Shown: positions 3,004 through 59,335, counted from the stretch's first letter. The stretch: 64,000 nt of DNA from Minisyncoccota bacterium (GCA_041651415.1 JBAZJH010000003.1:15309-79308), one strand, 5' to 3'. Translations and numbers: made by a program. Notes: generated from the sequence alone by a model not told the origin.

Positions 3004-4878
3004 TTCAACGGTTTTTTGATTCAAGCGATTGACGTAATACCAATAGAGAATTTCTTTGCCAATAGGAACGGCGTTTAAACTGCCTTCGCGGGCGTCCTCA
3101 ACTAAAATAAGAACGGCTATTTCGGGATTCTCGGCCGGAGCGTAAGCAACAAAAAAAGCATTGGTTTTTTTCTTATTTTCCACTTGAGCGCTGCCGGTTT
3201 TGGCGGCAACCTCAAAAGGCAGGTCGTTTAAGAGATTGGCGGTGCCGTAAGATTTAGAAACAGCATCTTCCATCCCCTTTTTAACCATGGAGATTTCGTC
3301 TTTTAAATAAGAAAGGTCTAAAAGAACTTTTTTGTCTTCGCTTTTTAAAAGATGCGGGACATAAGAAACACCGTCGTTTGCGATAACGGAAATATAATTC
3401 AAAAGTTCAAGCGGAGTGACGGCTAAATCACCCTGACCGATAGTGACGTTGTAAGTGTCGCCAACGCGCCAAGGTTCGCCGGTTTTTTCTTCCCTTTTTT
3501 CCGGGTCGGGAATGACGCCGACTTTTTCTCCGGGAAGATCAATGCCGGTTTTTTCCGCCAAGCCGAAAGTTTTCCACCACTTGATAAGACGAGAAACGCC
3601 AAGACCTTCAAAATCGCCGAAACCGCCGCCGACATAATAATAATAAACATTGCTGGAACGGGCCAAGGAAGAATAAAGGTCAACCCAGCCTTGAGGCTTC
3701 CAATCCAAAAAGCGGGATGGAGATTCGGGATGATAGGGATTTGGAACATCCAGATAGCCGGGAGAATAAAAAACTTTTTCCGGAGTGACGACGTTTTCAT
3801 TCAAGGCGGCAATAGCGACAAGGGGTTTAATGGTAGAGCCGGGGTTATAAACGCCGGAAACAAATCTGTTAAAAAGAGGGCGGTTTAAGGAATTCAGGAG
3901 TTTGGTTCTTGATTCGGAATTCGTCTCAGAAACGAAAATATTGCTGTCAAAATAAGGAAAAGAAAGGGCGGCAAGAATTTCTCCGTTCCTTGGGTCGAAA
4001 GCCAAACCGACACCGGAGTCGCGGCCAAGAGAGTCAAGATGAGCAAGCATGCGTTGGAAGAAAAAATTCTGAAATTCAGAATCAATGGTAAGAGTTAAAG
4101 CTTCGCCCGGAACAGGATTATTGACTTTCTTTTTTTCAATCACATCGCCTTTCGCGTCGCGGTAATCAATGATAGTTCCTTTTTGTCCGGCGAGTTTTTC
4201 ATCATAAAAAAGTTCCAAACCGATTTTTCCGATTTCGTCGCCGAAATCAAGATAGCTGTTTTTTTGAAGCTCTTCCAAATTGGCTTCGCCGGTATAACCC
4301 AAGACATGGCCGAAAGCGGAGCCGCTTAAATAATGGCGGCGATAATCATCAACAACAGAAACCGATTCAAGTTTCAAACTTTTGACAGTCAGAGCTTCGT
4401 CAAGAGAAATGTTTTTAGCGACGATAAGTTCGGCATTTTTTTCAAGGTCAAGAGAAAAAAGCTTTTCTTTTATTTTGGAAGGCTCAAAACTGCCAATGGA
4501 TTCGGAAAGCTTGAAAAGAGTTTCTTCCTGAATTTCCTGATTTTTAAAAAAAGGAACAAGATTCAAGACAACGGAAAAGGTTGGTTCGTTTTCAACCAAG
4601 GGACTGCCAAAACAGTCAAAGATGAGGCCGCGCGGCGCGGGAGTTTTTATTTCCCGATTAACATTTGCAACAGCTTTTTTTTGATAAAAACCGCCTTGAA
4701 TAACATTCAGAAAAAAAATCCGCCCAAAAACAATCAGAATCAAAACAAGAAGAAGAGAGGAAACCAGATTAAAAACGTTTCGGCCAATCGGCTTTTCCAT
4801 GGAACCAAAACGGCGATGACCGACGGTGTCAGCCACAATTTCATCAAAAGCGAAAGATTTTTCTTTTCTTTTAAACAT
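3001..4878 (-). CDS. mrdA: penicillin-binding protein 2 (peptidoglycan D,D-transpeptidase)
   Basis: STIKP (SxxK), SSN and KTGSA (KTG) motifs, N-terminal TM; last gene of mreBCD-pbp2 operon; start chosen at internal Met to limit overlap with mreD. Confidence 0.85.
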   Translation of the reverse strand: MFKRKEKSFAFDEIVADTVGHRRFGSMEKPIGRNVFNLVSSLLLVLILIVFGRIFFLNVIQGGFYQKKAVANVNREIKTPAPRGLIFDCFGSPLVENEPTFSVVLNLVPFFKNQEIQEETLFKLSESIGSFEPSKIKEKLFSLDLEKNAELIVAKNISLDEALTVKSLKLESVSVVDDYRRHYLSGSAFGHVLGYTGEANLEELQKNSYLDFGDEIGKIGLELFYDEKLAGQKGTIIDYRDAKGDVIEKKKVNNPVPGEALTLTIDSEFQNFFFQRMLAHLDSLGRDSGVGLAFDPRNGEILAALSFPYFDSNIFVSETNSESRTKLLNSLNRPLFNRFVSGVYNPGSTIKPLVAIAALNENVVTPEKVFYSPGYLDVPNPYHPESPSRFLDWKPQGWVDLYSSLARSSNVYYYYVGGGFGDFEGLGVSRLIKWWKTFGLAEKTGIDLPGEKVGVIPDPEKREEKTGEPWRVGDTYNVTIGQGDLAVTPLELLNYISVIANDGVSYVPHLLKSEDKKVLLDLSYLKDEISMVKKGMEDAVSKSYGTANLLNDLPFEVAAKTGSAQVENKKKTNAFFVAYAPAENPEIAVLILVEDAREGSLNAVPIGKEILYWYYVNRLNQKTVE

Positions 4879-5336: not shown

Positions 5337-6022
5337 TTATTTTTTAATGACGGTTACTTGCCGCAAGTCATTGAGATTGTAAGGAATTTCAACCAAGACC
5401 TCAAAGAAAGGGCTGCTTTCATCGCTTTTAATGCGGCCGACTTGGCCGATAACAAACTCGGAAGAGATAAGTTTCGGGTCGGCCGAAACGATAAGAGCGC
5501 CAACCTCTATTTTTTCTTTTTTGCTCAAAAGGACAACCTTTGGTTCGGAACCGGCCTGAAAAAGGCCGCGAGCAAGGTTTTGGCCGACATAAACCGGGAA
5601 TTCCCAGTCCGGGTCAAAAACAGTTTTAAAAACAGAGTAATGAGCCAAAGATTCAGAGATTTTACCAAGAAGAGTTTTTTCAAAAACAACAAGGTCATCG
5701 GAAGAGATTCCGTCATCTTTTCCCAAATTCAAAGTAAGAGAACTTTTGTCACTAAAAGGATAGCCGACAAAAACAGTCGCCAACTTTCCCTGGAGAGCAG
5801 TTTTAGAAGAAATAGAATCAGCTAAATCTTTTTTTAAACCATCGAGTTCCAAACGAAGAGAAAGGTTTTCTTGTTCAAGGGAAAATATCTTCTCATTTTC
5901 TTTTTCACCGAAAAGAGCGACTTTCAGTTTAAAAAAAAATTGTTGCCGGCAACCATGCTGATAAAAACAACAAAAGCGAAGATGATAACAAAAGTTTTAA
6001 AAATTTTTCCTTTTTTTTCCAT
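5337..6022 (-). CDS. mreC: rod shape-determining protein MreC, interrupted by frameshift in homopolymer
   Basis: N-terminal segment MEKKGKIFKTFVIIFAFVVFISMVAGNNFFLN stops after a T9 run (plus-strand A9 at 5931-5939); adding one T gives continuous MreC (coiled coil then beta domain DGISSDDLVV...); ATG at 6022 is 4 nt after mreB stop. Confidence 0.6.
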
Positions 6023-6026: not shown

Positions 6027-7073
6027 TTAAAGAGTGATATCTTTGGGGCGAAGAGGATTATCCAAAATATAACTTAATTTTTCATAGTTTTCAACAACAG
6101 AACCAATGCCGCGAATGGCGCAAGTCAGAGGCTCATCAACAACATAAGTCGAGATGCTGGTTTCTTTTTCTATCAATTCTCCCATACCGCGAAGAAGAGC
6201 GCTGCCGCCGGAAAGATAAATCCCCTGCTTTAACATATCGCCGACAAGCTCAGGCGGAGCCGATTCGATTATTTCGCGAACGGATTCAACGATGATTTTA
6301 ATCGGCTTTAAGATGGCAGAACGAGCATGAGTGCCGCGGACAATCACTTCGCGCGGCAAGCCGGAAGAAATATCGCGGCCGCGAACATTCATTTCCAGTT
6401 TTTCCCCGCCGGCGATAACGCCGGCGATATTTATTTTAATGTCTTCAGCGGTAGCTTCGCCGATAATAAGCTTAAATTCGTCTTTGACAAATTTAGAAAT
6501 TTCCTGATTGAGTTCATCGCCGGCAATTTTGAGACTTCTTGATATAACAATTCCACCCATAGAAATAATGGCGATTTCAGTCAGGCCGCCACCGATATCG
6601 ACGATAAGGTTGGAAGTCGGGTCTTCAATAGGAAGATTGGCGCCAAGAGCGGCGGCAATAGGCTCTTCGATGAGATGGGCATGACCGCCGCCCGCGCCGA
6701 TAACGGCATCCTCCACGGATTTTCTCTCAACTTCAGTCAAGTTGCTTGGAATACCGATAACAACTTTTTGAAAATTAAGGAGATTGGAATTATTAACCTT
6801 GCGCAAAAGAATTTTAAGCATTTCTTGAGTCATTTCAAAATCGGAAATAACGCCGCTTTTTAAGGGATGAATCACATCAATATGGAGAGGAGTGCGGCCA
6901 AGCATTTTTTTGGCTTCTTCGCCAACCGAAAGAATCTGCCCGGATTTGGAGTTGACGGCGGCGATACAAGGTTCGTTTACAACAATTCCCCTGCCTTTCG
7001 CATAAACCAAGACATTCGAAGTGCCAAGGTCAATGCCGATATCTTTGCCAAAAAATTTAAAAGGATTAAACAA
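6027..7073 (-). CDS. mreB: rod shape-determining protein MreB (actin-like)
   Basis: IGIDLGTSNVLVY, DIGGG, actin-fold phosphate motifs; TTG start. Confidence 0.9.
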   Translation of the reverse strand: MFNPFKFFGKDIGIDLGTSNVLVYAKGRGIVVNEPCIAAVNSKSGQILSVGEEAKKMLGRTPLHIDVIHPLKSGVISDFEMTQEMLKILLRKVNNSNLLNFQKVVIGIPSNLTEVERKSVEDAVIGAGGGHAHLIEEPIAAALGANLPIEDPTSNLIVDIGGGLTEIAIISMGGIVISRSLKIAGDELNQEISKFVKDEFKLIIGEATAEDIKINIAGVIAGGEKLEMNVRGRDISSGLPREVIVRGTHARSAILKPIKIIVESVREIIESAPPELVGDMLKQGIYLSGGSALLRGMGELIEKETSISTYVVDEPLTCAIRGIGSVVENYEKLSYILDNPLRPKDITL

Positions 7074-7341
7074 GAAAGTTAAAAGTTAAAAGTTTATAAA
7101 GTTGAAAAAATGGCTAATCCCGATTAAAAATAAATTTTTAACGGGACAAGTTAAGAATTTCTAATTAATGATTTAATAAAGAACCCTGGATTCTCGCATT
7201 CGCGAGAATGACAAAAGTTATCTAAACAGAGCAGGCCCTACAGGAATAGCCGTAAGCGAATTTCATAGGGCAAGCAAATTATAGTCCACGAGGGAATAAA
7301 AGTTCAAATATAAAGGGAAAAAAGAGAAAAAAGGAAAGATG

Positions 7342-11135: not shown

Positions 11136-12143
11136 TTATCTTTTATTCAGGAGAGTCCTCTTATAAATATCCAAGTGGCTCAAAATAATTCCAGTGCCTT
11201 TAGCCACGCAATAAAGCGGCTCTTCCGCTTGATAAGTCGGAACGCCCAAAATTCTTTCGAAAAATTCATCAAGATTACGCAGGAGAGCACCGCCGCCCGA
11301 GAGAATAATTCCTTTATCCATAATATCGGCAACGAGCTCCGGCGGAGTGTTGTTAAAAACGCTTTGAACAGCGGAAGCAATGTCGTTTAAAAAATGCCCG
11401 AGAGCTTCAGCCATTTCGTTCGAGGTGACGATAAGATCTTTCGGCAAGCCGGAAATAAGGTCAAGGCCGCGAAGATTAAATTCCAATTTGTCTTTCAAGG
11501 GAAGAGCCGAGCCGATGGAAATTTTTACGTTTTCCGCCATTTGTTCGCCGATAGACAATGAATGCTTCTTTTTAATGTAGTCAATTATGGATTGGTCAAA
11601 TTTATTGCCGGCAACGCGGAGAGATTCCCAAGCAACGATGCCGCCCAAAGAAACAACGGCGACTTCGGCGGTGCCGCCGCCGATATTAACAATCATATTA
11701 CCGCAGTGAGAATTAATAGGAATGCCGGCGCCGAGAGCCGCCAAAATCGGTTCGCGGACAATAAAGACTTCTTTGGCGCCAGCTTCTTTCGCCGCATTCA
11801 TAACTGCGCGGCGCTCAGTCGGAGTGATGCCAGCCGGAACGGAAATAACAACTTCGGGGCGGATAACGTTAAAACGGCCGACAGCTTTATTGATAAAATA
11901 AGAAAGCATCGCTTTCGTAATGTAATAGTCGGCAATGACGCCGTCTTTTAAGGGGCGGTAAGAAATAATGTCTTCGGGAGTGCGGCCAAGCATTTCTTTA
12001 GCTTCACGGCCGACAGCCAAAACTTTATTTTCCGGTTTAGTAAGCGCAACGATAGTCGGTTCATTGATAATAAATCCCCGTCCCGGAACGAAGACGATAG
12101 TATTAGCAGTGCCAAGGTCGATGCCTATTTTTTTAGTGAACAT
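11136..12143 (-). CDS. MreB/Mbl actin-like paralog
   Basis: IGIDLGTANTIVF, NIGGGTAEV motifs; second MreB homolog in window. Confidence 0.85.
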   Translation of the reverse strand: MFTKKIGIDLGTANTIVFVPGRGFIINEPTIVALTKPENKVLAVGREAKEMLGRTPEDIISYRPLKDGVIADYYITKAMLSYFINKAVGRFNVIRPEVVISVPAGITPTERRAVMNAAKEAGAKEVFIVREPILAALGAGIPINSHCGNMIVNIGGGTAEVAVVSLGGIVAWESLRVAGNKFDQSIIDYIKKKHSLSIGEQMAENVKISIGSALPLKDKLEFNLRGLDLISGLPKDLIVTSNEMAEALGHFLNDIASAVQSVFNNTPPELVADIMDKGIILSGGGALLRNLDEFFERILGVPTYQAEEPLYCVAKGTGIILSHLDIYKRTLLNKR

Positions 12144-12240
12144 GATATTAAGTTAAAAGTTCATAAAGTTTGTAAAGTTTGTAAAGTTAAAAGTTCGTAA
12201 AGTTGAAAGTTCGTAAAGTTTGCAAGGTTAAAAGTTTAAA
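12144..12240. repeat. phased AAAGTT/AACTTT decamer array immediately upstream of mreB-paralog start
   Basis: gtaaagtttgtaaagtttgtaaagttaaaagttcgtaaagttgaaagttcgtaaagttt: about 10 units at about 10-nt period ending 5 nt before ATG; related arrays at 2591-2626, 7071-7108, 25515-25600, 26615-26645, 27508-27590 and a palindromic copy inside 23S at 60815-60895. Confidence 0.6.
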
Positions 12241-16319: not shown

Positions 16320-16670
16320 TTAAACAAATTCAATAATGGCAATTTTTCCGCCGTCCCTTTTTCTGAAAGAATCAGTTTTGGTTATACGCAAAAATCCTCC
16401 GGCGCGTTTTTGATATTTGGGAGCGATTTCAAAGTAAAGCTTTTCGGCAGAACTTTTATCAAGTTTAGCGAGAAGGCGACGAAAATCAGCAAGAGTCTGT
16501 TTTTTAGCGACAGAAACAAGGCGTTCAACAAACGGCCTGATGGATTTGGCGCGCGCTTCAGTGGTTTCGATTTTTCCCTTTTTAATCAAATTGCCAGCCA
16601 AGCCTTTAAGAAAGGCCTTACGCTGCCCTTTTTTTCTGCCAAATTTTCTGCCTTCTTTTCCGTGAATCAT
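16320..16670 (-). CDS. rplQ: 50S ribosomal protein L17
   Basis: MIHGKEGRKFGRKKGQRKA... L17 N-terminus. Confidence 0.9.
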   Translation of the reverse strand: MIHGKEGRKFGRKKGQRKAFLKGLAGNLIKKGKIETTEARAKSIRPFVERLVSVAKKQTLADFRRLLAKLDKSSAEKLYFEIAPKYQKRAGGFLRITKTDSFRKRDGGKIAIIEFV

Positions 16671-16679
16671 GATAAAAAA

Positions 16680-17450
16680 TTATTTTTTACTTTTTTTCTT
16701 TTTAGTTTCCTTTTTGCCGGATTCTTCCGAATCTTCTTCCGCCGCAGTTTCTTTATCTTTGAAAAAATCGGAAATGACGGCAAAATGGTCTTTTAAAATT
16801 TCAGCTGACTTGAACAGCGCCACCGAAGGAAGAATAGTGCCATCAGTGAAAATCTCAAAATTTATTTTGTTGTAGTCAGTGCGGTCGCCGACGCGGATAT
16901 TGTCGATAGTATAATTAACTTTTATAACCGGAGAGAAGAAAGCGTCGATAGCAATATTGCCGACAGAGAGTTTTTCGTCTTTTCTCGTATCCGCCGGAGA
17001 ATAACCCAATCCTTTCTCCACTGTCAATTCCATTTCCAGTTCGGCTCCTTTAGCAGAAAGAGTGGCGATATGCTCGTCGGGATTAGCAATTTCAATATCG
17101 GAATTGAGTTTAATATCTTTTCCAGTCACTTCTTTTTCTCCTTTTATCTTAAGCTCAAGAATTTGCGGCTCATCGGCATACATCTTGAATTTTAACTTTT
17201 TTAAATTAAGAGTGAGTTCAATAACATCCTCAACCACGCCATCAATCGTGGAAAATTCATGATTAACCCCTTTGATTTTTATATAGGTGATGGCAGAGCC
17301 GGGAAGAGAAGAAAGAAGAATTCTTCTCAAAGAATTTCCAATAGTTAAGCCATAACCCGGATAAAGTCCGGAAATGGAAAATTCCCCCCTTTTTTCGGAT
17401 TCGGAAATTTTTTTAATTTCGATAGATTCGCCCAAGTTTAAATAATTCAT
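16680..17450 (-). CDS. rpoA: DNA-directed RNA polymerase alpha subunit, N-terminal domain only (no alpha-CTD)
   Basis: Alpha-NTD dimerisation/assembly sequence present; protein ends at 256 aa with acidic then Lys-rich tail instead of the about 80-aa CTD. Confidence 0.85.
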   Translation of the reverse strand: MNYLNLGESIEIKKISESEKRGEFSISGLYPGYGLTIGNSLRRILLSSLPGSAITYIKIKGVNHEFSTIDGVVEDVIELTLNLKKLKFKMYADEPQILELKIKGEKEVTGKDIKLNSDIEIANPDEHIATLSAKGAELEMELTVEKGLGYSPADTRKDEKLSVGNIAIDAFFSPVIKVNYTIDNIRVGDRTDYNKINFEIFTDGTILPSVALFKSAEILKDHFAVISDFFKDKETAAEEDSEESGKKETKKKKSKK

Positions 17451-17475: not shown

Positions 17476-18108
17476 TTATTTTGAATAAAATTCCGTTATT
17501 AAATTGACATCGAAAGGAAGTTCGACATCAACCGGAAGAGAGCTTATTTTGCCTCCCAAAATAGAGGGATCGACCACAAGCCAAATAGGAGCATCATATT
17601 TTTCAAGCTTCTCTTTCAAATTTTTGAAAATAGTTTTGTCCTTTGAATTTTGGTTTATAGAAACCACATCTTTAACTTTAACCTGAAAATTAGGAAAAGT
17701 AACCTTGCGGCCATTGACGGAAATATGCCCGTCTAAAATTATTTTTCTCGCGATTATTCTTGTTTGAGCAAGACCCATGCGGAAAACAACATTATCAAGC
17801 CGGCGTTCCAGAACATTAATCAAACATTCTTTAGTGTTAGTTTTGGCTTTAATAGCTTTTTTGAAAATTTCCACCAGCTGGTTTTCGCTCAAACCATAAG
17901 ATATTTTCATCTTCTGTTTTTCCTTAAGCTGGAGACCAAAGTCGGAAAGCGCTTTTACTCCCCTTTTGCGGTTATTGCCATGCTGCCCCGGTTTATAAGG
18001 CTTTTTTACCATAGCTGATTTCGGACTTAAAGACCGCTCAGCTTTCAAGCCTAATCTTTCTCCCAAAGCTCTCTCTTTTTTTTCTTTTGGACCTCTTAAT
18101 AAAAGCAT
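17476..18108 (-). CDS. rpsD: 30S ribosomal protein S4
   Basis: KKPYKPGQHG motif and S4 domain. Confidence 0.9.
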   Translation of the reverse strand: MLLLRGPKEKKERALGERLGLKAERSLSPKSAMVKKPYKPGQHGNNRKRGVKALSDFGLQLKEKQKMKISYGLSENQLVEIFKKAIKAKTNTKECLINVLERRLDNVVFRMGLAQTRIIARKIILDGHISVNGRKVTFPNFQVKVKDVVSINQNSKDKTIFKNLKEKLEKYDAPIWLVVDPSILGGKISSLPVDVELPFDVNLITEFYSK

Positions 18109-18114: not shown

Positions 18115-18567
18115 TTAAACTCTTCTTACTTTTTTAGGACGCGGACCGTTGTGCGGAATCGGCGTAACGTCATTAATGGAAAGAATATTGAAACCCTGGT
18201 TAACAAACGACCTAATAGTGGAATCACGGCCAGTGCCAATGCCTTTTATAAAAATATCGATATTAACCGGACCAGACTTTTTCAGCTTTTCAGAAAGAGC
18301 GGCAACGATTTTAGAAGCGGCAAAAGGAGTGGCTTTTTTAGGCCCATTGAAGCCGAGAGAGCCGGCGGAAGCCCAAGCAATAACCCCGCCTTTTTCATTA
18401 GTAACGGTGATAACAGTGTTGTTGTAAGAAGCATTAACGTAAACCCGTCCGTTTTCTATTCTTTTAGAAACAGCTTTACTTTTGGCTTTTTCAACGGCAG
18501 ATTCCACAACTCCTGCTTCTTTTATAGCTTCTTCTTTTGTTTGGCTGACTATTTTTTTCTTTCCCAT
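18115..18567 (-). CDS. rpsK: 30S ribosomal protein S11
   Basis: RVYVNASYNNTVITVTNEKGGVIAWASAG...KKVRRV. Confidence 0.9.
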   Translation of the reverse strand: MGKKKIVSQTKEEAIKEAGVVESAVEKAKSKAVSKRIENGRVYVNASYNNTVITVTNEKGGVIAWASAGSLGFNGPKKATPFAASKIVAALSEKLKKSGPVNIDIFIKGIGTGRDSTIRSFVNQGFNILSINDVTPIPHNGPRPKKVRRV

Positions 18568-18592: not shown

Positions 18593-18976
18593 TTATCTTA
18601 ACTCGACTTTGCGTTTTCCGCTACCGGCAGTTTTTCTGACATTGCCGCGAATAGTGCGACTGTTTCTTTTAGTGCTTTGGCCGCGAACCGGAAGATTCCG
18701 GCTGTGACGATTGCCGCGATAAGAACGAATATCTTTTAAACGCTGAATGTTTTGCTTGATTATCTGGCGAAGCTCTCCTTCGGTTTTTAAATTATTTTCC
18801 AAATAATTCTGAATTTTAGCAACTTCCTCAGAAGAAAGGTCTTTGGCTCTTTTTTCCAAATCAATTTTAATTTCTGAGAGAACTTTAATAGCCAAAGTTC
18901 GGCCGACTCCGTAGATGTAAGTGAGAGCTATTTTTACCTTTTTATTATCCGGTATTTCAACTCCTGAAACGCGCAT
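18593..18976 (-). CDS. rpsM: 30S ribosomal protein S13
   Basis: MRVSGVEIPDNKKVKIALTYIYGVG. Confidence 0.9.
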   Translation of the reverse strand: MRVSGVEIPDNKKVKIALTYIYGVGRTLAIKVLSEIKIDLEKRAKDLSSEEVAKIQNYLENNLKTEGELRQIIKQNIQRLKDIRSYRGNRHSRNLPVRGQSTKRNSRTIRGNVRKTAGSGKRKVELR

Positions 18977-18993: not shown

Positions 18994-19107
18994 TTAACCT
19001 TGGCGCTGTTTGTGCCGAGGATTTTTGCAAATAACATAAACTCGCCCTTTTCTTCTTATGGTTTTGCAATTTTTGCATCTTTTTTTAACTGAAGATTGAA
19101 CTTTCAT
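18994..19107 (-). CDS. rpmJ: 50S ribosomal protein L36
   Basis: Not in ORF track (too short); manual translation gives [37 protein letters not shown]. Confidence 0.85.
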
Positions 19108-19122: not shown

Positions 19123-19335
19123 TTACAGACGCCGAATAATCCTCCCCTTGTCTATGTCGTAAGGGGTTTGTTCAACCAGGATTTTATCTCCGGGAATGAT
19201 TCTTATCCTATTAATACGAAGCTTCCCAGCAAGATGAACCAACAAATCGCGTCCGTCCTCCGTTTTGGCTCTGAATTTTAAACCAGGCAATGCTTCCTCC
19301 ACAACCGCCTTAATAACATTTTGATCTTTTTTCAT
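19123..19335 (-). CDS. infA: translation initiation factor IF-1
   Basis: S1-like IF-1 sequence, 70 aa. Confidence 0.9.
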   Translation of the reverse strand: MKKDQNVIKAVVEEALPGLKFRAKTEDGRDLLVHLAGKLRINRIRIIPGDKILVEQTPYDIDKGRIIRRL

Positions 19336-23590: not shown

Positions 23591-24232
23591 TCAAAAAAAA
23601 TCAAATTCATCGCCGCGAAGAAGAAAACTTTTTTGAATAGTCCGAACCGCTCTTTTAAAAGATTGACGGACAGCTTCGGGAGTTATTTTTAGAAGACGAG
23701 CCACCTCTTTAAGAGTTCTCGGTTTTCTGTCTATTTCAAGAAATCTAAGCCGGATAACTTCCTTTTGCCTTTCCGTAAGAAGAGAAAGAGCTTTTTTTAA
23801 GAAAACGGATTTTTTCTTTCTCATTTCCCGAGAAGAAAGAGAATCTCTCGGAGAAGGAATATTCGAAACAAGATCGGAAAAGAAAGAAAAATAAGAATCA
23901 TCGTTTTCAAAAACAAGTTTCTGACTTTTAGGTTCTAATTCAAACCTTAAAATTTCTTCAATCTGCCTCAAAATTTTGAAATCAAGGTAAGTCACCAATC
24001 GACAGTCTTTAGAAAAATCAAAGCCTTTAATTGCTTCCCAAACGGCGATTTGTCCGGCGCGCATCAAATCGGAAAAAGAAAGCTTTAAAAAGGGATATTT
24101 TTTCCTAAATTCCGACATCTTTTTAGTAATCCAGTTTTCTTGGCTCTTAAAAAGGATTTCGAGCGCTTCCGAGTCGCCGTCTTTAGCTTTTGCGATAAGA
24201 AGATATTCTTCTTCTTTTTTCAGCCTATTCAT
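23591..24232 (-). CDS. RNA polymerase sigma factor, sigma-70 family (region 2 and region 4)
   Basis: Region 2 (FSDLMRAGQIAVWEAIKGFDFSKDCRLVTYLDFKILRQI) and region 4 HTH (RKPRTLKEVARLLKITPEAVRQSFKRAV). Confidence 0.7.
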   Translation of the reverse strand: MNRLKKEEEYLLIAKAKDGDSEALEILFKSQENWITKKMSEFRKKYPFLKLSFSDLMRAGQIAVWEAIKGFDFSKDCRLVTYLDFKILRQIEEILRFELEPKSQKLVFENDDSYFSFFSDLVSNIPSPRDSLSSREMRKKKSVFLKKALSLLTERQKEVIRLRFLEIDRKPRTLKEVARLLKITPEAVRQSFKRAVRTIQKSFLLRGDEFDFF

Positions 24233-25514: not shown

Positions 25515-25615
25515 GAAATAAAGTTAAAAGTTAATAAAGTTTTTAAAGTTGAAAGTTTATAAAGTTCATAAAGTTAAAAGTAACAAATTTAAAAAAGTTA
25601 AAAGCAGAGAAAAAA

Positions 25616-26652: not shown

Positions 26653-27507
26653 TTATTCTTCTTCAAGGCGGCCGCCAAGCGTGCGAAGTTTCTTTAAAGC
26701 AATTCTAGCTTCTTGCTCCGTAGGCGATTTGCCGTGCCAAGTGAAATCGCTTTCCATAAAATCAACGCCCTTCCCCGGAATGGTGTGAGCGATAATCGCG
26801 GTCGGACGTTCAAAAATAGCTTTAGCTTCGTTCACAGCATCCACAATCGATTCAAGATTATGGCCGTCGATTTCAAGAACCTGCCAGTTGAAGGATTCAT
26901 ATTTGCGACGGAGAGATTCGAGAGGCATCACGTCTTCCGTAAAACCGCTGATTTGAATATTGTTCCGGTCAATAATGGCAGTGAGATTGTTCAGGCGATA
27001 TTTTCCGGCAAGCATAATGGCTTCCCAAGTATTGCCACAGTCATGTTCGCCATCGGACATCAAACAAAAAACATGGTTTTTCTTTTTATCAAGCTTTAAA
27101 GAAAGAGAAAGACCGATAGCTTCGGAAAGTCCAGAACCAAGAGGGCCGGAGGAAATTTCCACGCCAGAGAGGCGGCCGCGGCGCGGATGGCCTTCGAGGC
27201 GAGAATTGAGCTTGCGCAGAGTTCCAAGCTCTTCTAAAGGAAAATAACCAGCGCGAGCGAGCGAGGCATAAAGGATAGGACAGATGTGGCCGTTTGAAAG
27301 AAGCAGAAAGTCGCGGGCGGGCCAGGCCGGTTTTTTCGGATTGTGATTCAAAATAAAAAAATAAAGAGCGGAAAAAATATCAGCCATACCGAGAGAGCCG
27401 GCAGAGTGGCCGGAACCAGCCATAGCCAGCATTTCAATAACATCCTGTCTTAAGGTGTTAGCCATAAATTCAAGGTGCTTTATTTTTTTTTCCGAAAGTT
27501 CAGGCAT
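26653..27507 (-). CDS. transketolase, N-terminal (TPP-binding) subunit
   Basis: GSGHSAGSLGMADIF, GHPRRG..GVEISSGPLGSGLSEAIG, SDGE TPP-binding motifs. Confidence 0.85.
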   Translation of the reverse strand: MPELSEKKIKHLEFMANTLRQDVIEMLAMAGSGHSAGSLGMADIFSALYFFILNHNPKKPAWPARDFLLLSNGHICPILYASLARAGYFPLEELGTLRKLNSRLEGHPRRGRLSGVEISSGPLGSGLSEAIGLSLSLKLDKKKNHVFCLMSDGEHDCGNTWEAIMLAGKYRLNNLTAIIDRNNIQISGFTEDVMPLESLRRKYESFNWQVLEIDGHNLESIVDAVNEAKAIFERPTAIIAHTIPGKGVDFMESDFTWHGKSPTEQEARIALKKLRTLGGRLEEE

Positions 27508-27713
27508 GAAAGAAAGTTAAAAGTTAATAAAGTTTGTAAAGTTGAAAGTTTATAAAGTTCATAAAGTTAAAAGTAAAAATAACAAATTCCAAATAAATTA
27601 CAGCATTAAATTACTAATATTAAAAAGATAAACTCATTGTTTATTTTACAACAAATGGAGAAAATTTAGTATGTGAATAAAAAAATCCGACGCAAGGATA
27701 AGAAAAAAATATT

Positions 27714-29426
27714 TTATTCGCGGATGACGCGGAGAATTTCTTCTATAGTAGTCGAGCCAAGTTCAGCTTTTTTAATGCCATCTTCAAACATAGTCGACAT
27801 CCCCTCTTTTTTAGCTTGCGATTTTAAAGAATCAAGAGAAAAATTGCGGTCGGTAATAAGGTTCCGGATATTTTCGGAAACATTTAGAATTTCGAAAATG
27901 CCGATTCTGCCTTTATAGCCGGTGCCGCCGCAAACAGGGCAGCCAGCGCCTTTATAAAGAACTTTAGGAATAACAGGATTTTCAATAGAAGGGTCAATTT
28001 CTTTCAACTGACGCTTAATAGAAGATATAACATCCGCGCTCGGCTTAAAAGAAGCAATACAGGAAGAACAGATTTTTCTAACAAGACGCTGAGCAATAAT
28101 AATATTTAGAACAGCAGAAACCAAAAAGGGAGGGATTTTCATATCAAGAAGACGCGGAATAGCAGTAGTGGCATCGTTTGTATGTAAAGAAGAAAGAAGA
28201 AGATGGCCGGTCAAAGCCGCATTAACGGAAATATCAGCGGTTTCCTCATCGCGAATTTCACCAACCAAGATGATGTTCGGATCTTGACGAAGAATAGAAC
28301 GAAGACCGTTCGCAAAAGTGATACCAGCCTTTGCATTAATTTGAGTTTGATTGACATATTTTATTTCGTATTCAATAGGGTCTTCAACAGTAACAATGTT
28401 AACTTCGGGAGTATTCAACATATTCAAAATAGAATAAAGCGTAGTGGTTTTACCGGAGCCAGTCGGACCGCAAACAATAATCATACCAAAAGATTTTTTG
28501 ATATTTTCTTTAACAATTGGCACCAGACTTCCGGCAATACCAAGTTCTTCCAAAGACATCGGTTTTTGAGTGGAAGGCAAAAGACGTAAAACGGCTTTTT
28601 CGCCGTGAAAAGTCGGCATAATGGAAACTCTGATATCAATAACTTCTTTGCCAATCTTATAACGGAAACGACCATCTTGAGGTTTGGAATGCTCATCTAG
28701 TTTGAGACTCGCAAGAAGTTTGATTCTCGCCACCATCGGGAGAAGAACATCAACAGGAATTTGAACGATTTCCCGCAAGATACCATCAACGCGAAAACGA
28801 ATAAGGATGGAAGTTTCGAGAGGTTCAAAATGAATATCGGAAGAGCCGAGAGAAAAAGCGTAAGAAACAACATTATTAACAAGGGCGACAATCGGAACAT
28901 CGGCAGCAGCTTCTTCCAATCCTTTGGATTTACTACCTAAAGAGGCGCGAATGTTTTCTTCAATAAGCTCTTTAAAATCTTTAGTGAATTTTTGGCTGTA
29001 AACGGAGAAAATCTGATTTAAATCTTCAGAGGTGGCGAGAAACGGATTTAAAGAAGTTTTCAACAAACTGGAAAGAAATTCAATCGTCTCAAGATCGCTC
29101 GGATTTTCCATAGCCACATCAAAAGAGCCGTCTTCATTTTTTTTGAAAATTACCGCGCGACGAGATCTAGCCACATCTTCCGGTAAAAGACGGACTAGAG
29201 ACTCATCGAGAGAAGCAATATTAATGTCAGCATGATCAACGCCAAAATATCTGGAGAGAAGAGAAACAAAATATTTAGAAGAAATGATATTTCTCGAAAC
29301 AAGAATATCAACCACATCTTGGCTAAGACGAACAGCTTCCAAAAGAAGCGCGTCAAATTCTTCAGGAGTAATGAGCTTATCCTGAATTAAAAATTCTTTC
29401 AGTTTTTCGGCAGGGATTTGAGACAT
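27714..29426 (-). CDS. pilB: type IV pilus assembly ATPase PilB (GspE family)
   Basis: Walker A VCGPTGSGKTTTLYS, Asp/His boxes, C-terminal CPVCGGTGYKGR zinc tetracysteine. Confidence 0.9.
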   Translation of the reverse strand: MSQIPAEKLKEFLIQDKLITPEEFDALLLEAVRLSQDVVDILVSRNIISSKYFVSLLSRYFGVDHADINIASLDESLVRLLPEDVARSRRAVIFKKNEDGSFDVAMENPSDLETIEFLSSLLKTSLNPFLATSEDLNQIFSVYSQKFTKDFKELIEENIRASLGSKSKGLEEAAADVPIVALVNNVVSYAFSLGSSDIHFEPLETSILIRFRVDGILREIVQIPVDVLLPMVARIKLLASLKLDEHSKPQDGRFRYKIGKEVIDIRVSIMPTFHGEKAVLRLLPSTQKPMSLEELGIAGSLVPIVKENIKKSFGMIIVCGPTGSGKTTTLYSILNMLNTPEVNIVTVEDPIEYEIKYVNQTQINAKAGITFANGLRSILRQDPNIILVGEIRDEETADISVNAALTGHLLLSSLHTNDATTAIPRLLDMKIPPFLVSAVLNIIIAQRLVRKICSSCIASFKPSADVISSIKRQLKEIDPSIENPVIPKVLYKGAGCPVCGGTGYKGRIGIFEILNVSENIRNLITDRNFSLDSLKSQAKKEGMSTMFEDGIKKAELGSTTIEEILRVIRE

Positions 29427-30639: not shown

Positions 30640-30656
30640 AATAATTTTTTAAAAAA

Positions 30657-31253: not shown

Positions 31254-31298
31254 AGTAAATGAATAATTTTATGATTTTTGTAAATTGAATTTTAGAAG

Positions 31299-31889: not shown

Positions 31890-32029
31890 GAGATATTTTA
31901 TACTTACGACTTTTTTATAAACTAACGTTTTTATTTTCTACTCTTTCTATTTTTCTAAACTTTTTCAAATTATGGATATATTTTTATTTTAAAGCATGGT
32001 AAACATAATGTTTATTGTTTTTTTATAAA

Positions 32030-49183: not shown

Positions 49184-52100
49184 TTATGATTTTTCCTCTT
49201 CGCCTTTTCCCCTATCCTCATCGTCAAAACTTTCCACAAAACCTTCTTTGGTGTGATGTTTAAAGCCGGTGCCGACAGGAATCAAGCGGCCGATAATGAC
49301 ATTTTCCTTAAGTCCGCGGAGATGGTCAACTTTACCGCAAGTGGAAGCGGAAACGAGAACCCGCGCGGTTTCCTGGAAAGAAGCGGCGGAAAGGAAGCTT
49401 TCCGAAGAAAGAGAAACTTTAGTGATGCCTAAGATAAGCTGCTGGGATTTAGCCGGTTCTTTGCCTTCTTTTTTCATCTCGCGATTAACTTCAAGAAAAC
49501 GAGAGCGGTCGGCAATATCGCCGAAAAGGAATTCCGTGTCGCCCGGTTCGGTTATTTTTACGCGAGAGAGCATCTGCCTGATAATTATTTCAATATGCTT
49601 GTTATTTATCGGCGCACCTTCAGAAGCATAAATCTTTTGAATTTCTTTAATGATGTATTTTTGGACTTCTTCTTCGCCGCGATATTTCATCAGTTCTTTC
49701 AAATCCAAGTGGCCGCTCGAAAGCTGAGTTCCTTTTTCCACCACATCGCCGACTTTAAAGAAAATATCGGAAGTTTTATGAATGGAATATTCCACCACTT
49801 TCGGCTTTTTACCGGAGATTTTGAAATAAATAGTTTTGAGCGAGCCGCTTTCTTTTATTTCCTCGATAACACCATCGGCTTCGGCGAGAATGCCTTTAGT
49901 CTTCGGAATCCTGGCTTCAAAAAGTTCTTCCACCCGAGGCAAACCATGCGTGATGTCAGCGCCAGCGGTTCCTCCAATGTGGAAGGTTCGAAGAGTAAGC
50001 TGAGTGCCAGGTTCGCCGATTGATTGAGCGGCAACAACACCGACCGCTTCGCCAATTTCGATTTCTTTATTAAGAGCAAGGTCAAGCCCGTAGCATTTAG
50101 AACAGACGCCAAAAAGAGATTTGCAAGTTAAAGGAGAGCGGACAATAACAGACTTTACGGATTCATCTTGCTGAATTTCTTCCGCAATTTCACGCGTGAT
50201 AATTTCTCCGGCTTTAACCAAAGTTTTATGTCCGGATTTAACATCAAGAAGAGCGGCGCGGGAGAAAATTCTGGAAGAAAACGACTGACCAAAACTATCG
50301 CCGCCATCTTCTCTTAAAATAGTAACGCCTTCTTTTCCCTTGCAATCTTTTTCCCGAACTATTATTTCTTGAGCAACATCAACCAAGCGACGAGTCAGGT
50401 ATCCGGCTTGAGCGGTTTTCAAAGCGGTGTCAGTTAAACCTTTTCTCGAACCGTGAGTGGAAATAAAATATTCAAGCACGCCAAAGCCTTCTTTAAAGGA
50501 AGATTTAATCGGAAGCTCAATAACTTCGTTTTTTGGATTCTGCACGAGACCCTTCATACCAATCATCTGCACCGGCTGAGTCCAAGAACCGCGGGAACCG
50601 GAATCGATAATGCTGTAGATAGGATTATTTTCCTTAAAAGATTTCGGAACAACTTCGGCAATTTCAACGCGAACTTTATTCCAAACGGAAATAACCCGGT
50701 TTCTTTTTTCAGAACGAGTAAGAATTCCTTCCAAATACTGGCTTTCAATTTTTTGAATTTCTTTTTCGGCTCTTGCCATAATTTCTTTCTTTTCCAGAGG
50801 AATAATGAGGTCCGCCATAGCCCAAGTGATTCCGGAAACAGTGGCGTATTTAAAACCAAGAGTTTTAACCTTATCAAGAGTGTCGGAAGCTATTTCAAAT
50901 CCGTATTGGTCGATGATTTTATCAATAATTTTAGTAAGGTCTTTCTTTTTCATCACTTTATTAACATAAGGAAAGTCCGGCGGAAGAATGCTGTTGAAAA
51001 TAACGCGGCCGCAAGAAGTTTCTTCGGCCTTAGAAGAGCCGATTTTAACCAAAGAATTTATATCGACAAGGTCATTTTCAAGAGCGATTAAAGCTTCATC
51101 ATTGGAAGAAAAGATTTTTCCGGCGCCTTTTCCATTCGCTACGGTTTTTGTTAGATAGTAGCATCCCAAAATAATATCCTGAGTAGGAGTAGCAACCGGG
51201 TCGCCGTTAGCCGGTTTTAAGAGATTGCCGGAGGAAAGAAGCTTGGTTCTCGCTTCTTCTTGAGCTTCGTCGGAAAGAGGCAAATGGACTGCCATTTGGT
51301 CGCCGTCAAAGTCAGCGTTAAAAGCGGAACAAACCATCGGAGGAATTTGAATAGCAAAGTCTTCCGTCAAAAGCGGACGAAAAGCCTGAACGCTCAAGCG
51401 GTGCAAAGTCGGAGCGCGGTTCAAAAGAACTTTTCTATCAGCGATAACTTCTTCCAAAATAGCCCAAACTTCCGGAGGAGCCTGTTCAATCAAGCGATTG
51501 GCGTTTCTGATATTGTGAGCCAAACCGCGGCCTATAATTTGAGAAATAACAAAAGGCTTGAAAAGTTCAAGAGCCATTTTTTTCGGAAGACCGCATTCGT
51601 TTAAGCGAAGTTTCGGACCAACGACAATAACGGAACGTCCGGAATAATCGACGCGTTTGCCGAGAAGATTCTGGCGGAATCTTCCTTGTTTTCCTTTCAA
51701 CATATCGGAGAGGGAACGCAAGGGACGGCGACTGGAAGACATTTGCTGATTGCTGCCGACGCGAGCGGAATTGTCAATTAAAGCATCAATGGCTTCTTGA
51801 AGCATTCTTTTTTCATTAACAACAATAACGTCCGGAGCTTTCAGGTCGATGAGTTTTTTCAAGCGATTATTGCGATTGATAACGCGGCGATAAAGGTCAT
51901 TCAAGTCGCTTGTAGCATAACGTCCGCCGTCCAACGGAACCATCGGGCGAAGGTCCGGAGGAAGAACCGGAAGAACGGAAATAATCATCCATTCCGGACG
52001 AATTTTATTTCTTTCCATAGACAAAAGAAGTTTCTGCCTCTTTAAGAGACGAACTTTTTTAGTGGCGTCTTTAACATAAGCAAGCTCTTCTTCCGTTTTT

Positions 52101-52777
52101 TTGATCTCTTTTTTGAGATCCATATTTTTCAGAATTTTTTTCAAAGCTTCAGCGCCATGACCGGCTTCAAAAACATCGCCGAATTTTCGAGAAAGATTGA
52201 AATAATCCAACTCGGAAAGAATGTGACCGATAGACAAAGATTCAAGAGAATCTTTGGTTTTTTCAGCGGCATCTTCCAAAGCTTTCAAATCTTCTTTGGA
52301 AGATTCATCCTTTTTTCTAGAAACAAGTTCCTTGCTTAATTCGCCGAGAGCGCGTTTTTTATTTTCTTCATTAACGTTAGTGACTATAAAAGAAGCGTAA
52401 TAAACAACTCTCTCAAGCTTTTGAGAAGAAACATTCAAAACCAAGCCGAGTTTGGAGGGAACATTCTTGAAAAACCAAATATGGCAAACCGGACAAGCGA
52501 GTTCGATATGGCCCATGCGTTCGCGGCGGACAATAGAGCGGGTAACTTCCACGCCGCATTTGTCGCAAACTATGCCTTTGTAGCGGATACGCTTATATTT
52601 TCCGCAGTAGCATTCGTAATCTTTGGCCGGACCGAAAATTCTTTCAGAAAAAAGCCCGTCCTTTTCAGGCCTTTGAGTGCGATAATTGATAGTTTCCGGC
52701 TTGATAACTTCTCCGTAAGACCATTTCAAAATATCTTCGGGGGAAGCGACGGTTATTTTTAAAGCATCAAATTGCAT
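49184..52777 (-). CDS. rpoC: DNA-directed RNA polymerase subunit beta-prime
   Basis: Zinc-binding CxxC...CxxC N-terminus, NADFDGD catalytic motif, 1197 aa. Confidence 0.95.
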
Positions 52778-52797: not shown

Positions 52798-55700
52798 TTA
52801 ATTATTTTCTACGGTTTTATTTTTTTGAATCAGCTCGATATTAAAACCGAGAGATTTTAACTCGCTTAAAAGCACATTAAAGGAAGCGGGAATATTGGGG
52901 CTTTTTATTTTTTCACCCCGAATAATCGATTCAAAAGTGGCGGAGCGTCCCATAATGTCGTCTGATTTTATCGTAATCATTTCCTGGAGAGTGTGCGCGG
53001 CGCCATAACCTTCAAGAGCCCAGACTTCCATTTCTCCAAAACGCTGACCGCCGAATTGCGCTTTTCCGCCGAGAGGCTGCTGGGTAATCAGAGAATAAGG
53101 GCCGATGGAACGGGAGTGAATCTTATCTTCAACCAAGTGGTTGAGTTTCAGCATATAGATGTAGCCGACAGTGACCCGGTTTTTTATTTTATCGCCGGTG
53201 CGACCGTCAAAAATTTCTATTTTTCCGTCTTCCGGAAGGCCGGCTAATTTCAATTCATTTTTTATTTCCTCTTCGGAAGCGCCGGAAAGAGGAGGCGTGA
53301 TGGCGCGATAGCCGAGAGCGTGGGCGGCCCAGCCAAGATGGGTTTCAAGAACCTGTCCAAGATTCATACGAGAAACAACGCCAAGAGGATTTAAGACAAT
53401 ATCAACCGGAGTGCCATCTGCAAGATAAGGCATATCTTCCACCGCGCGGATTTGAGAAATAACTCCTTTATTGCCATGGCGGCCGGCCAATTTATCTCCC
53501 ACTTTTACTTTTCTGACTTGAGCGACATCAACTTGAATTTTTTTAATCACACCCGGTTCAAGATTGTCGCCATGTTCGCGGGAAAATATTTTGATACCGA
53601 CAACGCGCCCGCGTTTGCCGTGCGGAAGAGACAAAGAGCTGTCTTTAACGTCTTTGGCTTTCTCGCCGAAAATAGCGCGAAGCAAACGTTCTTCAGAAGT
53701 AAGGTCGGCTTCCCCTTTCGGAGAAATTTTTCCAACCAGAATATCGCCGGAGTTAACCTCAGAACCGACTCTGATTATTCCCTCTTCGTCAAGATTTCTT
53801 AATTTATCTTCGGAAACATTAGGAATGTCAGGAGAGGTTTCTTCAGGGCCAAGTTTGGTGTCGCGAACATCGCAATAAAAATTTTCAATATGAACGGAAG
53901 AAAAAACATCGCGTTCGGCGGCGCGTTCCGAAAGAACGATAGCGTCTTCAAAATTAGCGCCTTCAAAAGAAAGAAAAGCGACAAGGAGATTTTGGCCCAA
54001 AGCCAAAATGCCGTTTTCAGTGGAAGGACCATCGGCCAAAACTTCGCCTTTTTTCACTTTCTGCCCTTTTTTAACAAGAGGATGCTGAGAAATGGAACCG
54101 AACTGATTGGAACGTTTGAACTTAATAAGCTCATATTCTTTCACTTCATCTTTGTATTTAACCTTGATGCTGTTTCCGTCAACGGCGGCGATTTCTCCCG
54201 CTCCTTCCGCAATAATCAAATAACCGGAATCTCTGGCCGCTTTTTCTTCCATACCGGTTGAAACAAACGGAGCTTCCGGACGAAGAGGGATGACGGCCTG
54301 GCGCTGCATATTGGAACCCATGAGAGCGCGGTTGGCATCGTCATGCTTTAAAAATGGAATAAGAGAAGTGGCAACGCTTAAAAATTGATGGGGAGAAACA
54401 TCGATAAAATCTATTTCTTCAGCCGAACAGGTGCCCGGGTCTCCTTTAATTCTCGCTTCCACGATTTCATCGATAATTTTTCCGGCCGGAGTAAGATTGA
54501 TGTCCGAGGGAGCAATTTTATATTTTTCTTCTTCAAAAGCGTCAAGCCAAACTATTTCTTCCGTCACTTTTCCGTTTTTAACGCGAAAATAAGGAGTTTC
54601 AAGAAAACCCAAATTATTAAGGCGAGAAAAGTTTGCCAAATGATTGACAAGACCAATGTTGGAACCTTCCGGAGTTTGAATCGGACAGATTCGGCCATAA
54701 TAAGAACTATGAACATCTCTGACTTCAAAACCGGCGCGCTCTCTGACAAGTCCGCCCGGACCCATGGAAGAAAGACGGCGTTTATGCTCAATTTCAGAAA
54801 GCGGGTTAATCTGGTCCATAAATTGAGAGAGCTGGGAAGAGGAGAAAAATTCTTTAACGATGGCCATTAAAATGCGCGGGTTGATAAGCTGAGCGGAGGT
54901 GATGTCGGTTTCAATAAAAGTGGACATGCGGTCTTGAATAACGCGGCGAAGCCTGGCAAAACCGATGCGAAGGCGAGCTTCCAGAAGTTCGCCGACAGGA
55001 CGAATGCGGCGATTGCCAAGATGGTCAATGTCGTCAGCTTCTTGTTCTTGAAAATTATTAAGGCGAATGACTTCTTTAAGAATGGCAACGAGGTCATCAA
55101 GGTCGAGCAAGCGATTATCTTTTTTAACATCCAAGTCAAGACGCTGATTGATTTTAAACCGACCCACCTCGGAGAGGTCATAGCGGTCATTTCTCCTGAA
55201 CATGGAGTCAATGAGATTCTTGGCGTTTTCGGCAGTAGCCAAATCGCCCGGCCGGACTCTTTTATAAATTTCGAGATAAGAAGAAGAAACATTTTTAGCA
55301 ATGTCTTTCGCTAAAGTGTTTTCAATGTATTTTACGGAATTTTGGTCAATGTCCTTGAAAGCTTTCAAAATATCCTCATTTGTTTCAAGACCAAAAATGC
55401 GAAGAAGACAGGAAACGGGAGTTTTGCGATTGCGGTCGATTTTAACGCCCAAAGAACCATTCGCTTCCGTTTCAAATTCCAACCAAGCCCCGCGATTGGG
55501 AATTATTTTCGCTCCGAAAAGTTTTCGGCCGCGCCAAGAACTGGCAGTAAAGTAAACGCCGCTTGAGCGGACAAGCTGAGAGACGACGATTCTTTCCACG
55601 CCATTAATAATGAAAGTGCCGCGATTAGTCATCACCGGCAAATCGCCAAGATAAATTTCCTGCGTTTCTTCTTTTTTTGTCCTTTTATTTATAAGGCGAA

Positions 55701-55968
55701 GAGTGGCGCGAAGAGCGGCTTCATATGTGGCGTCGCGGTAGCGGGCTTCCGCTTCCGTGTATTTCGGCTCGTCAAAATAATAATCTTCAAAAATAAGGTC
55801 AAACTCTTTTCCGGTATAATCGCTGACAGGAGAAATTTCGGAGAATAATTCTTTTAAACCTTTTTTTAAAAACCAATCGTAAGAATTCTTTTGAATCTCA
55901 TCAAGCTTGGGTTGCTCGATGACATACTGATTATTGGAAGAAAAAACCTTAGTTGATAAATTCGCCAT
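52798..55968 (-). CDS. rpoB: DNA-directed RNA polymerase subunit beta
   Basis: 1056 aa with conserved beta subunit regions (GEMEVWALEGYGAA etc.). Confidence 0.95.
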   Translation of the reverse strand: MANLSTKVFSSNNQYVIEQPKLDEIQKNSYDWFLKKGLKELFSEISPVSDYTGKEFDLIFEDYYFDEPKYTEAEARYRDATYEAALRATLRLINKRTKKEETQEIYLGDLPVMTNRGTFIINGVERIVVSQLVRSSGVYFTASSWRGRKLFGAKIIPNRGAWLEFETEANGSLGVKIDRNRKTPVSCLLRIFGLETNEDILKAFKDIDQNSVKYIENTLAKDIAKNVSSSYLEIYKRVRPGDLATAENAKNLIDSMFRRNDRYDLSEVGRFKINQRLDLDVKKDNRLLDLDDLVAILKEVIRLNNFQEQEADDIDHLGNRRIRPVGELLEARLRIGFARLRRVIQDRMSTFIETDITSAQLINPRILMAIVKEFFSSSQLSQFMDQINPLSEIEHKRRLSSMGPGGLVRERAGFEVRDVHSSYYGRICPIQTPEGSNIGLVNHLANFSRLNNLGFLETPYFRVKNGKVTEEIVWLDAFEEEKYKIAPSDINLTPAGKIIDEIVEARIKGDPGTCSAEEIDFIDVSPHQFLSVATSLIPFLKHDDANRALMGSNMQRQAVIPLRPEAPFVSTGMEEKAARDSGYLIIAEGAGEIAAVDGNSIKVKYKDEVKEYELIKFKRSNQFGSISQHPLVKKGQKVKKGEVLADGPSTENGILALGQNLLVAFLSFEGANFEDAIVLSERAAERDVFSSVHIENFYCDVRDTKLGPEETSPDIPNVSEDKLRNLDEEGIIRVGSEVNSGDILVGKISPKGEADLTSEERLLRAIFGEKAKDVKDSSLSLPHGKRGRVVGIKIFSREHGDNLEPGVIKKIQVDVAQVRKVKVGDKLAGRHGNKGVISQIRAVEDMPYLADGTPVDIVLNPLGVVSRMNLGQVLETHLGWAAHALGYRAITPPLSGASEEEIKNELKLAGLPEDGKIEIFDGRTGDKIKNRVTVGYIYMLKLNHLVEDKIHSRSIGPYSLITQQPLGGKAQFGGQRFGEMEVWALEGYGAAHTLQEMITIKSDDIMGRSATFESIIRGEKIKSPNIPASFNVLLSELKSLGFNIELIQKNKTVENN

Positions 55969-58774: not shown

Positions 58775-58889
58775 ATGCCGGCAAAACCTACTTTCGCCCC
58801 GAAGGACTATCATCGGTTCCGCGCCGTTTCACTTCCGAGTTCGGAATGGATCGGGTGTTTCCAGCGCGAGTTAATCACCGGCAAACCAA
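58775..58889 (-). rRNA. rrf: 5S ribosomal RNA
   Basis: GGTTTGCCGGTGATTAACTCGCGCTGGAAACACCCGATCCATTCCGAACTCGGAAGTGAAACGGCGCGGAACCGATGATAG...GCCGGCAT; helix I pairing of ends, loop C/E consensus (CCGAAC, AGTGAAAC). Confidence 0.8.
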
Positions 58890-59160: not shown

Positions 59161-59194
<34 letters not shown>

Positions 59195-59335
59195 CGTCCG
59201 AACATAGCTACCCAGCACTTCAGTTGGTACCAAAGCTGGTAGACCAGAGGTTCGTCCAACCCGGTCCTCTCGTACTAGGGTCAGCTTCCCTCAAATATTA
59301 ACGCCTGCAGCAGATAGAGACCAACCTGTCTCACG

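Follow-up and report, generated by a model that had tools for sequence, protein, structure and literature searches.

An RNA polymerase alpha subunit without a C-terminal domain, and its distribution in the Paceibacteria (Parcubacteria)

[quoted passage not shown] It encodes only 256 amino acids, as a first-pass annotation had proposed, and the translation of 16680..17450 (minus strand) ends in ...KDKETAAEEDSEESGKKETKKKKSKK (also written ...DFFKDKETAAEEDSEESGKKETKKKKSKK). Public databases hold an identical protein, P0001, where it is labelled RpoA from a MAG of Candidatus Paceibacterota. [quoted passage not shown]

16680..17450, minus strand: rpoA coding sequence, ATG start, TAA stop, 256 aa consisting of an N-terminal domain (NTD) and a short tail
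16761..17450, minus strand: alpha-NTD, residues 1-230, dimerisation and insert domain (Pfam, alignment invariants, AF2, Foldseek)
16716..16760, minus strand: acidic spacer, residues 231-245, KDKETAAEEDSEESG, at the position of the interdomain linker, fast-evolving
16683..16715, minus strand: Lys-rich terminal block, residues 246-256, KKETKKKKSKK
16671..16679, minus strand: spacer of 9 nt between the rpoA stop and the rplQ start, equal in length in sister genomes
16320..16670, minus strand: rplQ (L17; Ribosomal_L17, Pfam PF01196), start at 16670
17476..18108, minus strand: rpsD, canonical cluster, upstream of rpoA
18115..18567, minus strand: rpsK, canonical cluster, upstream of rpoA
18593..18976, minus strand: rpsM, canonical cluster, upstream of rpoA
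18994..19107, minus strand: rpmJ, canonical cluster, upstream of rpoA
19123..19335, minus strand: infA, canonical cluster, upstream of rpoA
49184..52777, minus strand: rpoC, 1197 aa (Pfam), partner of the alpha-NTD dimer
52798..55968, minus strand: rpoB, 1056 aa (Pfam), partner of the alpha-NTD dimer

The adjacency of rplQ had been recognised at first pass, with a distance of 10 nt that is here corrected to 9 nt; because rplQ starts 9 nt past the rpoA stop, there is no space for a C-terminal domain (CTD) between the two genes. Sister genomes with RpoA proteins 94% (L081 and L082 (= GCA_028709185.1)) and 86% (L083) identical to that of the window match it in RpoA length, gene order, the 9-nt spacer and the terminal KKETKKKKSKK.

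Elsewhere in the window, a 213-aa ORF at 23591-24232 (minus strand) has sigma-70 region 4 as its sole Pfam match. At the syntenic site of L081 and L083, flanked by the PfkB gene on one side and a 414-aa ORF on the other, only a 46-47-aa ORF is found, and the sigma-like gene is therefore either genome-specific or lost from the sisters. Four tandem paralogues of ~195-199 aa (30052-32629, minus strand) have type IV pilin-like N-termini (KGFTLMELLIVIG), end in a conserved ...Y E [LVI] G [TS] [DE] P [GD] L D [IL], and adjoin a T2SS/T4P ATPase-like gene at 27714-29426. The region ~58800-64000 is poor in ORFs and includes a LAGLIDADG endonuclease ORF (59453-59899, minus strand; PF00961). Ribosomal RNA operons with intron-encoded homing endonucleases are common in CPR, and this region is probably one of them.

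The alpha-NTD is intact, in agreement with the first-pass annotation. Pfam assigns RNA_pol_L (PF01193) to residues 31-223 (8e-21), split by a match to the full RNA_pol_A_bac model (PF01000) at residues 57-173 (2e-34). Two NCBIfam equivalog models of RpoA score above their cut-offs, NF003519 with 288.3 bits (cut-off 277) and TIGR02027 with 259.6 bits (cut-off 227.8), their matches ending at model positions 254 of 320 and 233 of 298, respectively; six further RpoA sub-models remain below their own cut-offs for this protein. The GNxLRRxLLSS assembly motif is retained, including R42 and R43, which are alignment invariants. An AF2 model based on 32 homologues has a mean pLDDT of 84, exceeding 90 across most of the NTD and falling below 50 for residues 237-256, and Foldseek aligns the modelled NTD with solved alpha-NTDs at an rmsd of 1.6-2.0 A over ~220 columns. 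Codon changes in the NTD relative to L081 number 76 synonymous and 15 nonsynonymous, and rpoA is therefore under purifying selection. From the assembly motif, the presence of rpoB and rpoC in the window and this selection on the NTD, we infer that the protein would assemble into alpha2-beta-beta' and support transcription. Archaeal RpoD/RpoL and eukaryotic Rpb3/Rpb11 likewise consist of dimerisation and insert domains only, without a CTD, but they are not orthologous at the family level: assignment to the RpoD/Rpb3 type was rejected, since the RpoD model NF001988 scores 23.2 bits against a cut-off of 153. Judged by these matches, the window RpoA is an alpha subunit of the bacterial, homodimer type.

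Canonical RpoA, as in E. coli, B. subtilis and T. thermophilus, is a protein of ~310-330 aa in which the NTD is followed by a linker and a CTD that binds UP elements, activators and sigma region 4. The window protein is orthologous to it, sharing the rpsM-rpsK-rpsD-rpoA-rplQ context and an NTD that is 38-48% identical and superposes at 1.6-2.9 A, but in place of the ~80-aa helix-hairpin-helix CTD (PF03118) it has a 26-aa acidic-then-basic tail. No RNA_pol_A_CTD (PF03118) match is found by Pfam in the window RpoA even at E<=1, and solved alpha subunits (314-329 aa) align with it only through their residues ~235-246. What follows residue ~230 is a stretch of 26 residues, predicted to be disordered, in which the acidic spacer precedes KKETKKKKSKK; with its length, its predicted disorder and the lack of a PF03118 match at that threshold, a divergent CTD hidden in the tail is ruled out. 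A profile made from eight Paceibacteria CTDs and that of E. coli was run in six frames (hmmsearch, --max, E<=10) over the window and 80 related loci, where it matched only the eight full-length genes, with zero matches in the 64-kb window and in the +-6 kb around 71 other short rpoA genes. The first-pass description of an alpha subunit with no CTD and a tail that is first acidic and then Lys-rich thus stands: homology to full-length alpha subunits stops at ~235-246 with no divergent CTD beyond, and no stand-alone alpha-CTD is encoded within the window or near the related rpoA loci.

This architecture extends well beyond the window. The best 120 matches in a collection of 5.8 billion proteins are all 238-280 aa long with PF01193 and PF01000 only, and those that are named belong to Paceibacterota, Pacebacteria, Wolfebacteria, Liptonbacteria or Patescibacteria. 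Scanning the GTDB species representatives yielded 80 loci, all of Parcubacteria/Paceibacteria type, of which 79 have a complete rpoA (that of L044 runs off its contig). The CTD is lacking in 71 of these 79 ORFs (239-298 aa) and present in the other eight (307-345 aa), which are labelled Azambacteria, Wildermuthbacteria, Portnoybacteria and Minisyncoccales, among others. When the search was seeded with one of the long forms, at least 120 further proteins of 288-333 aa were recovered, all with PF03118 and one labelled Nealsonbacteria. Among representatives clustered at 50% identity, 94 of the best 150 have the CTD and ~22 clusters are short with Lys-rich ends, the rest being fragments or frameshifted products. 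Because PF03118 is carried by the eight loci and by at least 120 homologues, the CTD is ancestral in the class and kept in some orders.

The representatives search also returned the RpoA-like P0242 (526 aa), which has a tandem pair of diverged alpha-NTDs and then one alpha-CTD; it may be an alpha heterodimer in covalently linked form. P0241 (569 aa) repeats its sequence exactly in tandem and resembles an assembly artefact.

In a neighbour-joining tree of NTD sequences with a Firmicutes root, which as a single-domain tree of modest support is indicative only, the window belongs to a large CTD-less clade (bootstrap 108/200) and other CTD-less sequences lie among CTD-bearing ones, L080 and L067 having no clear position. 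The identity contrasts provide the stronger argument. The NTDs of L066, L070, L072, L076 and L078, all CTD-less, are 75-81% identical to CTD-bearing proteins versus 57-59% to the main CTD-less clade, and that of L071 is 67% identical to CTD-bearing proteins versus 57% to the main CTD-less clade. Nesting in the tree and, above all, these contrasts point to at least two independent losses of the CTD, and probably to three or more. Our preferred reading is that the window gene encodes a genuine, inherited CTD-less alpha subunit of the kind that characterises a large Paceibacteria (Parcubacteria, CPR) clade, and, taken together with the full explanation developed below, we consider it likely to be correct.

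The C-terminal ends of the short proteins have a character of their own. The fraction of K+R in the last 15 residues averages 0.49 in 72 short RpoAs versus 0.21 in 766 neighbouring ORFs, a comparison set that includes many ribosomal proteins (Mann-Whitney p = 2e-35), and it reaches 0.4 or more in 92% of the former versus 13.8% of the latter; an acidic instead of a basic end is seen in ~5% of the short forms. Tails are enriched in K (33%) and E (16%) and depleted in N (0.9%), R (2.2%) and G (3.5%), the last two including the Arg-AGR and Gly-GGR codons. Within the window lineage, 8 of the 11 codon changes between the window and L081 tails are nonsynonymous and all eight fall within the acidic spacer, while KKETKKKKSKK is unchanged in L081 and L083 despite the divergence of the spacer.

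It is possible, though doubtful, that such a tail has no function in its own right, being a K/E-rich remnant of the linker continued by read-through into purine- or A-rich DNA that serves to initiate rplQ translation or overlaps rplQ, with an alpha subunit that is simply NTD-only. CTD-bearing relatives already have K/E-rich linkers, and the estimated gap between rpoA and rplQ is zero or negative in ~24 of 69 short loci; in L071 the two genes overlap by ~17 nt. In five loci, an independently CTD-less group, the final ~12 codons of rpoA are the start of rplQ read in another frame, with an overlap of ~32-35 nt:

L066, ~825-860: out-of-frame rpoA/rplQ overlap
L070, ~6735-6771: out-of-frame rpoA/rplQ overlap
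L072, ~4435-4467: out-of-frame rpoA/rplQ overlap
L076, ~3330-3366: out-of-frame rpoA/rplQ overlap
L078, ~5770-5806: out-of-frame rpoA/rplQ overlap

The pattern K[VI]KH[AE]K..KK.KKTK shared by these five loci was accordingly rejected as a conserved peptide motif: it is the L17 N-terminus MRK.KKGRKLSR read out of frame, and it is therefore no evidence for selection on the tail. Purines are also enriched at four-fold degenerate third positions in tails (0.50 vs 0.41, p = 9e-6), and since this modest bias remains, a contribution at the nucleotide level is kept as part of the explanation by read-through. Against a functionless tail, the enrichment is specific to Lys, with the Arg-AGR, Gly-GGR and A-rich Asn codons depleted; in no GC class does the tail prefer AAA to AAG more than the NTD does; Arg in the tails of GC-richer loci is mostly encoded by CGN; and loci at 52-60% GC retain a K+R fraction of 0.43 over the last 15 residues. 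The codon tests and the amino-acid spectrum show that A-rich DNA cannot by itself account for the Lys tail. Moreover, CTD-bearing relatives translate rplQ without such a tract, and in the window lineage, where rpoA does not overlap rplQ, the K block is invariant next to a spacer that is changing.

Our own reading of these patterns is that positive charge at the C-terminus of RpoA appears to be selected. The most likely role would be electrostatic contact with a polyanion, for which upstream DNA is the obvious candidate because of where the alpha linker exits the enzyme; that the tail does contact DNA we put forward tentatively. Basic DNA-binding tails occur elsewhere, in the AT-hooks of HMGA, the PAKKA-type tail of mycobacterial HupB and the Lys repeats of actinobacterial topoisomerase I. 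The tail predicted here from sequence is likewise low in complexity, disordered and strongly basic, but in the window its basic part is merely 11 residues long, and the tail GKKETKKKKSKK lacks an RGR(P) core. Four tails of other proteins do contain an RGRP core in a KRGRPKK-like, AT-hook-like setting (P0035, L051, P0277 and P0319), where a rough estimate gives ~0.03 as the chance expectation, and the tail of P0119 has PAKK-like repeats resembling those of histone H1 or HupB. Even in the best of the RGRP-bearing tails, the Pfam AT_hook model (PF02178) scores 13.1 and 10.6 bits, below its cut-off of 17.4. The first-pass suggestion that the Lys-rich tail makes nonspecific contact with DNA is therefore favoured by the conserved, recurrent basic end and by a few RGRP cores, and weakened by AT_hook scores that stay below threshold.

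Two other explanations concern the CTD itself. A split alpha subunit, whose CTD would come from a gene at another site in the genome, as a small protein by itself or as part of a fusion, and be recruited in trans, is very improbable: the six-frame profile found only the eight full-length genes and nothing in the window or at the 71 short loci, and with recurrent independent losses and no linked gene it is unlikely that every lineage supplies a CTD in trans. That a misassembly, frameshift or premature stop shortened rpoA in this contig, or left it a pseudogene, might be suspected from the short ORF and from an A-rich 3' end prone to homopolymer errors, but the chance of this is negligible, given that the identical protein is known from several sources, that independently assembled sister genomes share the ORF end and the 9-nt gap to rplQ, that the six-frame search leaves no CTD remnant in any frame, that the NTD is under strong purifying selection (76 synonymous versus 15 nonsynonymous changes), and that hundreds of homologues have the same architecture. 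The first-pass annotation had also judged truncation by assembly unlikely, while allowing that full-length homologues in sister genomes would suggest a local error; the sisters prove to be equally short, with the same junction. The window gene is thus almost certainly a genuine, inherited RpoA without a CTD.

A second unusual feature of the window is a set of (AACTTTNN)n arrays of 4-9 copies with a period of 8-9 nt, which lie on the coding strand and reach the start codons of five minus-strand genes, namely a GalT/HIT-like gene, two mreB paralogues, a PfkB kinase gene and the gene for the transketolase N-terminal subunit:

2587-2617, minus-strand sense: (AACTTTNN)n array
7075-7103, minus-strand sense: (AACTTTNN)n array
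12156-12236, minus-strand sense: (AACTTTNN)n array
25520-25575, minus-strand sense: (AACTTTNN)n array
27495-27568, minus-strand sense: (AACTTTNN)n array

No GGAGG occurs within the five arrays. In the sister genomes (94% and 86% RpoA identity) the same genes have ordinary AT-rich leaders with at most 1-3 copies of the motif, and only one small cluster was found in ~800 kb from the 80 related loci. Because the sisters carry only 1-3 copies at the same places, the arrays have, on this comparison, expanded very recently and in this genome alone, within 5' leader or promoter regions, and a role as a translation or promoter element is possible. The first-pass annotation had suggested that the tail and the loss of the CTD may be linked to these A-tract arrays, a link that finds no support: the arrays are confined to this genome, whereas the alpha subunit without a CTD and its tail are old and widespread, and a co-occurrence of the two is ruled out by the lack of arrays in the sisters and in nearly all of the 80 related loci. 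Both MreB paralogue genes, which are preceded by AACTTT arrays, are full-length (6027-7073 and 11136-12143, minus strand; Pfam 1e-121 and 1e-130), and this in a small CPR genome.

In E. coli and B. subtilis, viability or normal growth is considered to depend on the alpha-CTD, and its removal in model bacteria impairs growth and lowers the expression of rRNA, ribosomal-protein and carbon-source genes (PMC4495994). Its loss in Parcubacteria is the subject of one sentence in a 2021 paper, which describes natural CTD-less alpha subunits in Hodgkinia and Tremblaya and cites those of Euglena plastids (PMC8321222). The source given there for the Parcubacteria, Nelson & Stegen 2015 (PMC4508563), lists rpoA only as a core gene, with domain loss absent from its text and from the supplements consulted, and no further description of the loss in Parcubacteria was found in open-access papers and preprints. 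The loss is, then, already in print, and the feature is real and not a new category. No description was found of how far it extends across the Paceibacteria, of its repeated appearance next to sisters with a CTD or of the conserved Lys-rich end, and these points appear to be new.

In Hodgkinia, Tremblaya and Euglena plastids, too, the NTD is kept and the CTD lost, in reduced genomes with few transcription factors. The Paceibacteria differ in forming a large and diverse environmental clade with genomes of 0.5-0.9 Mb, not tiny and organelle-like ones, and in repeated losses beside CTD-bearing sisters, with a conserved Lys-rich end, which PMC8321222 does not describe.

Engineered alpha subunits offer another comparison. 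In work by Igarashi and Ishihama and by Hayward, RNA polymerase with an alpha(1-235)-type truncation reportedly assembles and transcribes. The alpha(1-235)-type truncations of E. coli and RpoA-del of B. subtilis have the same architecture as the window protein, and such polymerase assembles and transcribes (PMC4495994). These truncations fail to give normal viability or growth, whereas in the window lineage the CTD-less form is the natural state.

Our findings suggest the following course of events and mode of action. The intact alpha-NTD would dimerise and scaffold beta and beta', a platform role proposed because in E. coli a fragment of alpha comprising residues 1-235 is enough for assembly and basal transcription. 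The CTD would have been deleted down to the linker, leaving rpoA to end 9 nt before rplQ, and the remaining disordered tail would have been kept strongly positive over its last ~10-15 residues, this basic block making non-specific electrostatic contact with upstream promoter DNA or with another polyanion. Promoter strength would then rest on contacts between sigma and DNA and on regulators independent of the alpha-CTD, which would contact sigma, beta or beta'.

The alpha-CTD mediates UP-element binding and class I activation. Organisms with the short alpha subunit would thus, with high probability, neither read UP elements nor use class I activation, and would recognise their promoters through sigma and through regulators acting on sigma, beta and beta'. 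This mode of promoter recognition would fit small genomes with few regulators. A more far-reaching proposal, which we regard as unlikely, is that a minimal basic tail, in some lineages a bona fide AT-hook, has repeatedly and convergently taken the place of the alpha-CTD and clamps the minor groove of AT-rich DNA upstream of the -35 element. If this were true, the tails from two alpha-NTDs would constitute a sequence-unspecific, domain-free substitute for UP-element binding and a new way for a bacterial RNA polymerase to grip upstream DNA.

It is commonly assumed that every bacterial RNA polymerase has an alpha-CTD. Shedding of the domain is known from reduced genomes, and a major bacterial clade without it is noteworthy to specialists in transcription. 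A large, diverse and uncultivated clade without an alpha-CTD, which appears to have lost it several times, would indicate that small-genome, symbiotic lifestyles can do without this layer of promoter control, and promoter models and regulator predictions derived from model bacteria would not be applicable to these organisms. A simple biochemical hypothesis follows from the conserved Lys-rich end, and CTD-bearing and CTD-less sisters whose NTDs are 75-81% identical provide a natural experiment on how loss of the CTD affects promoters, sigma factors and regulators.
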